From assembly GCA_964594395.1 (NCBI GenBank), contig CAZQLW010000001.1, positions 27,579-91,578 on the forward strand: a stretch of DNA of 64,000 nt, given 5' to 3'. This document shows, piece after piece, positions 3,392 through 10,693 of this stretch; the first letter of the stretch is position 1, and each line of letters starts with the position of its first letter. Source of the stretch: an uncultured Methanosarcinales archaeon. Lineage in GTDB: Archaea > Nanobdellota > Nanobdellia > Woesearchaeales > GW2011-AR9. The position numbers and the translations under genes were made by a program. The notes under the pieces were generated by a model that did no database searches, was not told the origin of the DNA, and saw only the letters and a list, made by a program, of their open reading frames with translations.

Positions 3392-3663
3392 GTGTGTTGT
3401 TTTTTGGAATATATATATTCCAGCACACAAAAGATTATATATATGTTTGTATTACTTTCTCTTAGAATTAACGTTACCAAAACACCATACCAATACCTAA
3501 TTTAAACGAAGAGAATTAACTTTTGTACATACCAAACAATCAATTTCGTTGCGAGGTTACCAAGCTCTCAACAAAAACACCCTAATTTAGTTTCTTAGAA
3601 AGTTACGTTACTATATAAAGTTTTCTATTTTTCAGAACTTACTTTTTTGATTGCATTTAACGC

Positions 3664-7773: not shown

Positions 7774-9220
7774 TTACATAAGTTTCGTTAAGGTATACTG
7801 TCCATTTACTGGGATCAGGAATATCGTAAACTTCAACAGTCTTTTTAGAGATTTGATCAGAGTTTGGTACATCTGCACTAAGATACACGTTCTCGTATTT
7901 TTCTAAAGCTAAAGATTTTGTTCTACTTATAGATAAGATAGAATTATCTTTGTCATAAGTTGTTATAATTACCCAAAATGGTTTTTTAGTATCTGCTTTT
8001 GCTTTAATTGTAATTCCTTCTTTATTCCATTCTGATGCACTGACTAAAGCTGGATTTTCAATACAAGCACCTTTAACGCAAGTCATTTTCTCTGGGCAAG
8101 TTATTTCTTCTTTTACGATTCGTCCATTTTCTGCACAAGTATGTTCAATCACTTTTGTACCGCTACAACCATCTTCATAAGTAGTAATAGAATCATAATA
8201 ATTTTTACCTTGCTTTTTTAGTTCTAATCCGGTAATGTTACCGGTAACATGGATATTATCACTATCTGAATCAGTACAACCATTAAAACAGTCAGGGTAA
8301 TGATGATAACCATAATAATAACAACCATTAGAACAAGTAGTTTCTTTAACACTTAATCCTGTTTCAGAACAAGAAAAATCTACAAATGTTTGATTATCTT
8401 TACAAAAATCATGGACCTTTTTATTAATAATGTCGGTTTTATCATTGAATAAAGAAAAATTAACCATTCCTTTCATCCAATTAAATTCTGAATTTTGGTT
8501 ATCAACACATTGAAAACATGCACCTTTAGTACAAGAATAATCTTCTGGACATTCAATAATTTCAGAAGTTAAATTATTTTCTGTACAGGAATACTTTTTA
8601 ATTGAATCTTTTGATTCACAACTGTTCTCATGAAGTGTTTTACCTTTTTGGACAAAAGCAGGTTCAAAATTAATATTAATTGTAGAATATTTATCTTCAT
8701 GGTTTTTAAAATTTGGATTATTGAAAAAAGATAAAATTTTGTTTTTTGAATTTGGTCCGTAAAGTTGACTACATTGTGAACCAATAATATCTTCCAACAT
8801 TAAGTTTCCCCAATAAAAAGAATAATCTTCTCCAACGATTAAAGCCTGTTCATCTTCAAACTCGTCATTATATTCCCAATTGTATTGAAAAATACAAGTT
8901 CCACCATCTTCACCAGTAATATCATTAACCTTAATGTTAATTATATCGTCATTAAAATTAATCATTCCCATTTTATTTTTTGGAATAAACAATTCACTTT
9001 TTTGACCATTCTCGGAATTAAACTTAAAAACACATACTGGTGAAGTATCAGTTGCGTTTTCGGTGTAATAACCTTTACCAACGAACGTATCAGTAAAAAA
9101 TAGTAAAGAAACAAGAACAATAATTGCTACTAACGAGATTGCTAAAATGAGATATGGTTTCTGCTTGTTAGTTTTAGAAACAGTTTTAACTACCCTTTTC
9201 TTCACTCTCTTTTTTACCAT
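7751..9220 (-). CDS. membrane-anchored Cys-rich extracellular protein
   Basis: Basic N-terminus plus TM, then many Cys including repeated CPEDYSCTKGACFQC / CPEKMTCVKGACIE modules. Confidence 0.5.
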   Translation of the reverse strand: MVKKRVKKRVVKTVSKTNKQKPYLILAISLVAIIVLVSLLFFTDTFVGKGYYTENATDTSPVCVFKFNSENGQKSELFIPKNKMGMINFNDDIINIKVNDITGEDGGTCIFQYNWEYNDEFEDEQALIVGEDYSFYWGNLMLEDIIGSQCSQLYGPNSKNKILSFFNNPNFKNHEDKYSTININFEPAFVQKGKTLHENSCESKDSIKKYSCTENNLTSEIIECPEDYSCTKGACFQCVDNQNSEFNWMKGMVNFSLFNDKTDIINKKVHDFCKDNQTFVDFSCSETGLSVKETTCSNGCYYYGYHHYPDCFNGCTDSDSDNIHVTGNITGLELKKQGKNYYDSITTYEDGCSGTKVIEHTCAENGRIVKEEITCPEKMTCVKGACIENPALVSASEWNKEGITIKAKADTKKPFWVIITTYDKDNSILSISRTKSLALEKYENVYLSADVPNSDQISKKTVEVYDIPDPSKWTVYLNETYVIEYDEDS

Positions 9221-9276
9221 ATCATAAAATGAATATTTTATCGTTTATATAATTTTTCTTTTATAAGAAAGTAATT

Positions 9277-9372
9277 TGTCCGCTTTGCCAAATGAGGCAC
9301 ATGGTACACTAATCAAAAATAATTAATTGGTACCATAATCGTGCCGTGCAAGCTGACAGATTACTTTTTTTT
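9277..9372 (+). repeat. structured roughly 95-nt element, copy A (nested stems GGCAC/GTGCC and ATGGTAC/GTACCAT) followed by T8 run
   Basis: Homologous to 10255-10350 in inverted orientation. Nested hairpin predicted. Ends in TTTTTTTT (9365-9372). Confidence 0.5.
9365..9372 (+). terminator. oligo-T tract (archaeal-type terminator signal) following structured element copy A
   Basis: Eight consecutive T residues immediately 3' of the hairpin element. Confidence 0.3.
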
Positions 9373-9409
9373 GTTAAAATTAAATTAAAATAATAAGAAA
9401 AAGAACAGT

Positions 9410-9841
9410 TTACTTTTTATCTTCTGCTGGCTTTTCTTCAGCTTTTTCAGGAGCAGCTTCTTCACCTAATGATTTAGCTCCCTCTTTAACAATTTTAAGG
9501 TTAACTTGTCTGATGATTTTAGTAACTCTTTCACCGCAAACAGTTTTCCTTTTTAGAATTCCACCCTGGGTTTTCTTGTCTCTTTTCTTACCACTAGAGC
9601 CGACACCTTTACCTTTGATTAAAATTCGTTTTCTTGGAATTTGAATTCCGCTTCTCATTGGAAATCCACACTTATCTGAACCGCCAGTGATTATAAATTC
9701 ATAACCGTCAAATCCTAAATCTTTACCAGAAATTGTTTCTCCAATCCTTTTTTTCAAAAGATTATCCGCTTCCGGACTTTTAATTTCTTTTTGATGTGTT
9801 TTACCATCTTTTGCGCCAATTACGCATTTAAAGTCTACCAT
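9410..9841 (-). CDS. rps6e: 30S ribosomal protein S6e (eS6)
   Basis: ITGGSDKCGFPMRSGI matches the conserved S6e core (I-x-GG-x-DKQGFPMKQG). Confidence 0.8.
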   Translation of the reverse strand: MVDFKCVIGAKDGKTHQKEIKSPEADNLLKKRIGETISGKDLGFDGYEFIITGGSDKCGFPMRSGIQIPRKRILIKGKGVGSSGKKRDKKTQGGILKRKTVCGERVTKIIRQVNLKIVKEGAKSLGEEAAPEKAEEKPAEDKK

Positions 9842-10020
9842 TTTAGTTTATCTCCCGAGACTCAAGAACCTAACGATTCACGCCCAAATAGGGTTATCTC
9901 AGCTATGTTTAAAGTGTATTTTGATGGTGGTTTATAAATTATTTGTTAATTTTTTTAAATTCAGTAAAAACAGCTAAAGCTAGCAATACCTAGAAGAAAT
10001 TGTTTATTTTTTTACTATGT

Positions 10021-10206
10021 TCATTGTGGTTGTTCAAGTCCATTTAATTCTTCTGAGAGCGTGGAATGCTCTTCTCTTAGTTTACCTAGTTGAATTTTTT
10101 TGAACTCATTGATTTGGTTCCTACCCGCGTCCCACTCTAGCGGTTTTATCTTTTTGTCTAGGTTAAACAACTGTTCTTTTATTTCTGAAATACGTTCTTG
10201 GGACAT
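10021..10206 (-). CDS. small coiled-coil protein (hypothetical)
   Basis: The six-frame ORF runs to 10293, but its first 29 codons overlap repeat copy B. Likely start is MSQERISEIKEQLFNL at 10206. Confidence 0.35.
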   Translation of the reverse strand: MSQERISEIKEQLFNLDKKIKPLEWDAGRNQINEFKKIQLGKLREEHSTLSEELNGLEQPQ

Positions 10207-10254
10207 AAATATATACTTAGATAAGGAAATATATAAATGTTTGTGCTTATTATC

Positions 10255-10350
10255 TGTAATATGTCTGCTTGCACGGCACCTATTATAACGCATAAAAAAT
10301 TTATTAATTTGATTCTAGTGCGTTATGTGCCTCCATTGGCAAAGCCGACA
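10255..10350 (-). repeat. structured roughly 95-nt element, copy B (inverted relative to copy A; inner stem ATAACGCA/TGCGTTAT)
   Basis: Reverse complement aligns with 9277-9364 over about 90 nt. The outer GGCAC/GTGCC stem is conserved and the inner stem differs by compensatory changes. Confidence 0.5.
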
Positions 10351-10366
10351 TATTATATGCAGTTTA

Positions 10367-10693
10367 TTATTCAATTAAGTCTGCTTCAAACATTAAATAG
10401 AAATTAGCTTTCTCATCCAACCCTAATTTATACTCGTTACTTTCTATTTTTTTTAAAAAATGATTATAATCTTTTAGTTTTCCTTTACAAAGAAATTGTT
10501 CACCTATAATCACTGCAGAAATATCGACATCATGTTCAAACATATGGTTCCAAATTTGGACCACTTTGAGACTTAAAGATTTATCAACATCTAATCCAGC
10601 AATCTTGACTGGAAATGCTCTAGCAGTACCCGGTTTCTCTTTCAAATACTGATTACCAAAATTTTCTTTGTAAAACTGATAATCAAGAGTCAT
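10367..10693 (-). CDS. hypothetical protein
   Basis: 108-aa ORF with good coding appearance and no recognised motif. Confidence 0.35.
   Translation of the reverse strand: MTLDYQFYKENFGNQYLKEKPGTARAFPVKIAGLDVDKSLSLKVVQIWNHMFEHDVDISAVIIGEQFLCKGKLKDYNHFLKKIESNEYKLGLDEKANFYLMFEADLIE

Follow-up and report, generated by a model that had tools for sequence, protein, structure and literature searches.

Two inverted palindromic elements flanking rps6e in a DPANN archaeal contig are very probably miniature transposable elements of a family spread through Woesearchaeota and Nanoarchaeota

We analyzed a 64,000-nt stretch of contig CAZQLW010000001.1 (GenBank assembly GCA_964594395.1; hereafter the window), in which two copies of a palindromic element of about 100 nt, here called A and B, flank rps6e, the gene of ribosomal protein S6e, in inverted orientation. 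Each copy is very probably a miniature inverted-repeat transposable element (MITE), a type of non-autonomous DNA transposon, from a family that occurs across Woesearchaeota and Nanoarchaeota, the DPANN archaea to which the homologues of S6e assign the window. The element has the properties by which MITEs are recognized: it is small and non-coding, carries terminal inverted repeats, is flanked by an 8-bp target-site duplication (TSD), occurs at many unrelated loci and is represented by both filled and empty sites. The initial annotation, which was made from the window sequence, had listed a REP/MITE-like palindromic element among several options, and the duplications, the inverted repeats, the scattered copies and the empty sites support this option.

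Two element copies in the window

Copy A (9267-9368, plus strand, 102 nt) and copy B (10252-10360, minus strand, 109 nt) are present at both sites where two aligned segments of about 90 nt had been placed initially, and they are slightly longer than these segments. The ends of copy B are ambiguous by about 2 nt, the alternative span being 10254-10362. An inverted-repeat search of the window yielded the arms 9272-9326/10301-10355 and 9341-9364/10256-10279, and the MAFFT alignment of 9268-9368 (plus strand) with the reverse complement of 10252-10359 showed 83% column identity. Two blocks shared by the copies, the 13-mer GTGCCGTGCAAGC and the 19-mer GCTTTGCCAAWKGAGGCAC, occur in the 64 kb only in copies A and B, and two matches were obtained in 0 of 100 shuffles. 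Ten contigs from the same population as the window carry identical copies of the element. The two copies are about 900 bp apart, and the gene order on the minus strand is a 108-amino-acid (aa) gene, copy B, a 61-aa open reading frame (ORF), a leader, rps6e, copy A (antisense) and a 489-aa gene.

Distribution of the family

When 185,579 species genomes were scanned with the 18-base core pattern GCTTTGCCAANNGAGGCACA, 39 matches were obtained, of which 17 were family members: 14 in metagenome-assembled genomes (MAGs) labelled Woesearchaeota, Nanoarchaeota or 'archaeon', and three in one MAG labelled Methanosarcinales, with members on up to three contigs per MAG. A covariance model (R1) recovered all 17 archaeal matches at 45-105 bits and one adjacent extra copy (L261:3322-3422), while none of the bacterial or viral matches to the pattern scored with it. 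In total, 18 copies beyond the window were found in at least ten Woesearchaeota/Nanoarchaeota MAGs; with the window included, the family comprises 20 copies and a diverged member from at least 11 genomes, and their flanks and neighbor genes are unrelated. The second covariance model (R2), built from the 20 copies, still identified only two copies in the window. Copy A scored 115 bits with R1 and 106 bits with R2, and copy B scored 129 and 96 bits, respectively.

The element is about 90-125 bp long (the matches span 90-123 nt) and has no conserved ORF; an ATG following GGAGG is seen in only some copies. The 3' block GTGCCGTGCAAG, which lies outside the scan pattern, is present in nearly all members. 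All 20 copies are intergenic, and eight of them are located at most 15 nt downstream of a stop codon; this points either to preferred insertion into TAA-rich targets or to the survival of only those insertions that spared promoters. Beyond the archaeal genomes, the scan of metagenome and viral contigs with a 14-base pattern yielded, among the matches listed, only chance matches in GC-rich DNA; in viral contigs, the 17-base core patterns and the end sequence had chance matches or none; and BLASTN of copy B against phage and plasmid collections gave no match. The family is thereby documented with its boundaries, duplication length and covariance model across many Woesearchaeota and Nanoarchaeota genomes.

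Two observations on individual genomes belong here. In a Nanoarchaeota MAG, two copies from different subfamilies (L261:3322-3422 and 3446-3548, both on the plus strand) lie 23 nt apart in one intergenic region; this close spacing, like that of the window copies at about 900 bp, could be due to insertion hot spots or to a target preference that the subfamilies share. The three copies under the Methanosarcinales label (L271, L278 and L279) all belong to the MAG ERP019367_co1_71, named 'uncultured Methanosarcinales archaeon'. The 462-aa PEP-utilising protein adjoining one of them has its nearest named relatives in Woesearchaeota, which makes the label doubtful and leaves a cross-phylum transfer unsupported; judging from this neighbor, the contigs or the whole bin probably are of DPANN origin and either mislabelled or chimeric.

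Hallmarks of transposition

The ends of the family read 5'-GTAAG TAATATGTC ... GACATATTA CTTAC-3', that is, GTAAG-TAATATGTC when each end is read inwards, and form terminal inverted repeats of about 14 nt (5'-GTAAGTAATATGTC); the end sequence of the family is GTAAGTAATAKGTC. Judged by the information content per position, the conserved stretch ends 5 nt beyond P1, the outer helix of the fold described below, and the flanks are unrelated between copies. With the boundaries set from the end consensus, the 8-nt flanks on the two sides of a copy are 63% identical, compared with 32% in mismatched flank pairs (Mann-Whitney p = 3e-6). This duplication signal is seen at k = 8 only, the identity being about 35% at k = 6, 7, 9 and 10. 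The TSDs match at six or more of eight positions in 12 of the 20 copies, an offset-free search agrees, and perfect 8/8 duplications flank L281 (CTTTATTA), L274 (CCAAACAG) and L293 (TCATCTTA).

In the window, copy A ends with GAAAG...CTTTT, a degenerate form of the consensus GTAAG...CTTAC, and is flanked by TTTTATAA on the left (9259-9266) and TTTTGTTA on the right (9369-9376), which match at six of eight positions with the offset set by the family consensus. Because of the run of eight T on its 3' side (9365-9372), copy A had been likened to a small RNA gene with a terminator. The run is there, but the 3' end of the family is normally CTTAC followed by the duplicated target, and given the repeats of copy A, the 'terminator' consists of the degenerate element end together with the duplicated AT-rich target. 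The repeats of copy B are AATAAACT upstream in the sense of the element (10361-10368, minus strand), overlapping the stop codon of the 108-aa gene (10367-10693), and AATAAGCA downstream (10244-10251, minus strand).

As for the mechanism, a DDE-type transposase encoded elsewhere would bind the ends of the element, cut AT-rich intergenic DNA with an 8-bp stagger and insert the element there. The GTAAG ends and the 8-bp duplication would point to an enzyme of the IS66/ISBst12 type, and we treat this relationship as a tentative lead. The consensus start GTAAGTA agrees with GTAAGCG of IS66 in the first five of seven bases, and some subfamilies have GTATG or GTACG. To our knowledge, no other family with an 8-bp duplication in the ISfinder family table has GTAA ends. 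The likeness to IS66/ISBst12 comprises the 8-bp direct repeats and inverted repeats beginning with GTAAG, with only five terminal bases matching; moreover, the inverted repeats of IS66 are 20-30 bp long, whereas the arm-to-arm similarity of the element covers about 40 nt with fixed indels. In the literature, the inverted repeats of the IS66 family start with GTAAGCG and are accompanied by 8-bp direct repeats (PMC11946415), and ISDge4 of the ISBst12 group has the ends GTAACTG/GTGACTA and 8-bp direct repeats (PMC12898284). All 27 annotated insertion sequence (IS) families were reported in Nanobdellota (PMC13343696). In a bulk survey of MITEs, a woesearchaeal genome was among the most MITE-dense archaea, with 105 MITEs per Mb (PMC11602168), and the present family may already be listed in that survey.

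Several observations weigh against a MITE. The window copies have degenerate ends and TSDs matching at only six of eight positions, and only two copies are present within these 64 kb. Extra solitary ends, which an autonomous partner should have, were not seen in the fetched DPANN loci, none of the 20 large ORFs of the window had a transposase Pfam match, and the end sequence had no match in viral contigs. The part best conserved across subfamilies is the internal core and not the extreme ends, which is unusual for a simple model of transposase ends; part of this is due to ascertainment, as the core itself had served as the scan pattern. Finally, the P1 sequences differ in L265, L261b, L255 and the diverged L253 member.

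Folding and covariation of the element

The RNA folds of both copies share one long hairpin (z = -5.4 for copy A and -3.9 for copy B), and the same holds for the folds as single-stranded DNA (ssDNA; z = -4.6 and -5.1, respectively), in agreement with the common nested architecture described in the initial annotation. The shared fold begins with P1 (9 bp, TAATNTGTC/GACANATTA), which is followed by a conserved mismatch, and continues with P2 (GCTT-(T)-GC/GCAAGC; 6 bp, one T bulged out), an asymmetric internal loop with CAANNGA facing GT, P3 (GGCAC/GTGCC) with a bulge of 4-5 nt on the 3' side, and P4, comprising 7 bp under a variable loop. P4 is in register between copies A and B, and four of its seven pairs are changed on both strands, two from G-C to A-U, one from U-A to C-G and one from A-U to G-C (columns 36/73, 37/72, 38/71 and 39/70 of alignment A2).

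These compensatory changes of the inner stem had been noticed in the two window copies, and they become stronger with all 20. In the 20-copy alignment, which was fitted to the model with the registers anchored by invariant flanking blocks, 99.1% of the pair cells are standard pairs, and both partners have changed in 18 of the 27 pairs. The observed values were reached in 0 of 500 column shuffles, and pairing fell to 27-46% when the 3' partners were slid by 1-3 columns; the covariation is strong in all four helices. Addition of further copies did not abolish it; its loss had been named initially as the sign of a chance duplication. G.U intermediates are present as well, and two close copies from one MAG, L263 and L285, differ by a compensated pair and a G.U intermediate. 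Nearly all copies have retained the asymmetric features, namely the mismatch after P1 (C.T, G.A or T.T), the bulged T of P2, the loop of 7 versus 2 nt and the 3' bulge. From stems that are kept by paired changes while the loop and P3 are constant, we infer that the left and right ends co-evolve as a foldable hairpin or cruciform with a protein-binding core.

The initial annotation had concluded that selection acts on RNA or ssDNA structure. The covariation is real, but it does not establish selection on RNA: the sense strand has the better fold energy in 11 of 20 copies (Wilcoxon p = 0.32), and with respect to the upstream gene, about six copies are in sense and four in antisense orientation. 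Fold energies and G.U counts revealed no strand bias; with the orientation mixed as well, an RNA function is unproven, and selection on RNA structure is possible.

It is unlikely that the covarying stems and the invariant loop constitute a protein-recognised single-strand fold spread by transposition in DPANN genomes, that is, a mobile structured module in which folded RNA or ssDNA would be the functional form and the loop with P3 the protein-binding motif. Such a module could depend on its hairpin for transposition, or act as a hairpin in the 3' untranslated region (UTR) affecting mRNA stability, termination or processing, a role proposed for the bacterial Correia and ERIC elements. The covariation in all four helices and the compensated difference between L263 and L285 argue for it, and so do the persistence of the CAANNGA loop and P3 in a diverged member (L253:14869-14947) with other P1 and P2 stems, the frequent location just downstream of stop codons and the subfamily of L263, L268 and L285 (DPANNHV_H2.bin.83), in which the fold of the sense strand is more stable than that of the antisense strand by about 8 kcal/mol. 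Taken over the 20 copies, however, the two strands fold alike and the orientation to the upstream gene is mixed; in addition, there is no Rfam match, and the loop fits neither a K-turn nor a bulge-helix-bulge. If true, this reading would mean either hairpin-dependent transposition coupled to a DDE-like insertion with an 8-bp stagger, or a mobile RNA hairpin that would supply signals for 3'-end processing or stability to compact archaeal genes.

Decidedly unlikely is an explanation of the covariation as a mutational by-product. Templated correction during replication is an established mechanism for quasi-palindromes, and here it would have copied one arm of the element onto the other, which is consistent with the equally good folding of both strands and with a mobile DNA palindrome. 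Such correction should erase asymmetries, yet the mismatch, the bulged T, the 7-versus-2-nt loop and the 3' bulge have been kept, and G.U intermediates exist. For a MITE, the compensated hairpin offers a compact test case of whether palindromy is selected as DNA or as RNA.

Empty sites in relatives and independent insertions

Four relatives with the same gene order were compared with the window, their S6e being 90% (L251/L252), 80% (L253/L254), 76% (L314) and 73% (L313) identical to that of the window. The rps6e gene and its downstream neighbors are kept in all four, and the upstream 61-aa ORF also in L251 and L253. No element was present at either rps6e site in these relatives; the sequence was read directly in L251 and L253, R1 was applied to L251-L254, and R2 with filters off was applied to L313 and L314. 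The flanks of the window and L251 can be aligned across both sites, where each element appears as a clean insertion, and the empty site of L251 holds one AATAAGCA, which is exactly the downstream repeat of copy B. With empty sites in several nested outgroups, it is far more parsimonious to assume two gains in the lineage of the window than a series of precise losses.

These data bear on the functional bracket of about 900 bp that had been proposed around rps6e. According to this proposal, the copies would belong to a novel family of small structured non-coding RNA genes or would form a paired cis-regulatory or processing element of the transcript of the small ORF and rps6e; both versions are now very improbable. 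The inverted copies do flank the 61-aa ORF and rps6e, a minus-strand read-through transcript would have complementary ends, the folds are stable and the T run follows copy A. On the other hand, both copies are missing at the orthologous positions in L251, L253, L313 and L314, other family members adjoin unrelated genes at unrelated intergenic loci, and conservation between copies does not extend to the flanks or to any promoter or T run in them. Besides, the conserved promoter region of the small ORF, which contains a TATA element, separates copy B from this ORF, so that copy B is outside its 5' UTR.

The two copies are also not derived from each other. Copy A is 85% identical to L261a and copy B 84% identical to L257, while A and B are only 73% identical to each other, and the ranking is unchanged if the variable inner part alone is considered. 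Since A and B belong to different subfamilies and each is nearest to a copy from another genome, they represent two separate insertions; the pair did not arise by local inverted duplication, nor is it a designed bracket. A chance or segmental inverted duplication of one segment, specific to this locus, can be practically dismissed: the copies are about 900 bp apart and the sole two in 64 kb, but for each of them a copy from a different genome is more similar, both have 8-bp flanking repeats of their own, and 18 further copies exist elsewhere. Two independent insertions have a one-in-two chance to be inverted to each other, and the inverted arrangement around rps6e is coincidental.

The apparent pair of structured RNAs around rps6e is mobile DNA, and the element should be masked by annotators of DPANN MAGs. 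The family shows active or recent transposition in very small genomes and provides a marker for insertion polymorphism at the strain level. The link to rps6e is incidental; what remains of interest is the hairpin, unusually clean in its compensation and with an invariant asymmetric core, together with the family-specific DPANN model.

Comparison with known elements

The Rfam search suggested in the initial annotation was unproductive, as none of all 4227 families reached the gathering score in the window; at E <= 10, the region 9200-10420 gave only chance-level matches to microRNAs and long non-coding RNAs. A tRNA-like gene was excluded, as ARAGORN found no tRNA or tmRNA in the 64-kb window with settings that miss intron-containing or split archaeal tRNAs.

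Comparison of the fold with known RNA motifs was likewise negative. In place of the GA needed for a K-turn, the non-bulged strand has GU (GC in the L253 variant). For a box C/D RNA, copy B has AUGGAGG and CAGA as compared to RUGAUGA in the C box and CUGA in the D box. The element resembles the archaeal bulge-helix-bulge in having bulges on opposite strands around P3; this assignment was rejected, as P3 has five base pairs and not four, and the bulges are 7 nt (opposite 2) and 1-5 nt instead of 3 nt. The H/ACA and hammerhead readings were rejected against the sequence.

Among DNA elements, integron attC sites are likewise imperfect palindromes with a variable apical part, in which asymmetric or extra-helical positions are conserved, and they are recognized as a folded single strand. 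An attC site was excluded, as the element has no R''/R' boxes (RYYYAAC/GTTRRRY), does not form cassette arrays in direct orientation and is flanked by target duplications. REP/BIME elements, which RAYT (Y1/HUH) transposases mobilize, and the hairpin ends of IS200/IS605 are short intergenic palindromes too, whose hairpin shape matters and which often form inverted pairs; these insert without a TSD and measure 20-40 nt per unit, as opposed to about 100 nt and an 8-bp TSD here, and were excluded.

The closest parallels are the hairpin MITEs, of which Neisseria Correia/NEMIS, enterobacterial ERIC/IRU, pneumococcal RUP, Rickettsia palindromic elements and Sulfolobus SM1-4 were compared. Shared features are the length of about 100 bp, the lack of coding capacity, the intergenic location, inverted repeats, TSDs, many copies with presence/absence variation and the near-palindromic structure. 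As far as we know, the sequence of the element is unrelated to these families. Its 8-bp TSD and GTAAG ends set it apart from Correia, which has a TA duplication, and from RUP, and its most constant part is the internal asymmetric loop with the 5-bp helix and not just the tips. No partner IS is known for the element.

Further features of the element and its neighborhood

Within copy A, the 5' strand of P1 (TAATTTGTC, 9272-9280) pairs with GACAGATTA at 9355-9363 and forms the core of the terminal inverted repeat. The 5' half of the conserved core (9282-9300) contains P2 (GCTT-T-GC), the internal loop CAAATGA and GGCAC of P3; the variable inner hairpin (9301-9336) consists of P4 (ATGGTAC/GTACCAT) and the apical loop; and the 3' half of the core (9341-9363) contains GTGCC of P3, GT, GCAAGC of P2, the mismatch and GACAGATTA of P1, all on the plus strand. 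In copy B, the variable inner hairpin (10285-10326, minus strand) has P4 of the form ATAACGC(A)/(T)GCGTTAT with its apical loop.

The diverged member (L253:14869-14947 and L254:12207-12285, both on the minus strand) scores 33.7 bits with R2. Its outer stems P1 and P2 are different (AAACACCAG/CUGGUGUUU), the loop AAUGGAG is kept, and P3 is compensated to GGCGC/GCGCC; no clear target-site duplication was seen around it. This member shows that the core persists longer than the element ends.

Copy A was inserted 42 nt 3' of the rps6e stop codon. Copy B was inserted exactly on the stop codon of the 108-aa gene (10367-10369), and the duplicated target restores a TAA stop. On its other side, the 90-aa ORF 10021-10293 starts within copy B, whereas the conserved gene at this place is the 61-aa ORF 10021-10206 (minus strand), which the relatives have retained in position and length (L251 and L253, 61 aa; L313, 60 aa). 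Where contigs have been annotated with the 90-aa version, this is an artefact caused by an in-frame ATG that copy B supplies, so that the element yields a spurious extension of a conserved gene.

Directly upstream of the rps6e start codon (AGCUGAGAUAACCCUAUUUGGGCGUGAAUCGUUAGGUUCUUGAGUCUCGGGAG) there is a GC-rich leader of about 60 nt (9842-9905, minus strand), which is conserved in five genomes: the window, L251:9937-9995, L253:9937-9992, L313:9937-9995 and L314:~9870-9925. RNAalifold predicts an outer stem around two hairpins, with 3 of 17 pairs compensated (e.g. CCC/GGG to CUC/GAG and GAAUC/GGUUC to GAACU/AGUUC), and the leader has no Rfam match. In contrast to the MITEs, this element is tied to rps6e, and it is a candidate for a ribosomal-protein leader.

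In L251, the relative with 90% S6e identity, a two-gene insertion (L251:9330-9894) separates the 61-aa ORF from rps6e. Its first gene encodes a protein of 118 aa with the motif HVFNDGNKR, which we take to resemble the Fic/Doc toxin motif, and the second a 76-aa protein with a faint RHH Pfam match; judging from these motifs, the insertion probably is a toxin-antitoxin pair. Given this additional insertion, the neighborhood of rps6e therefore seems to be an insertion hot spot in this lineage.

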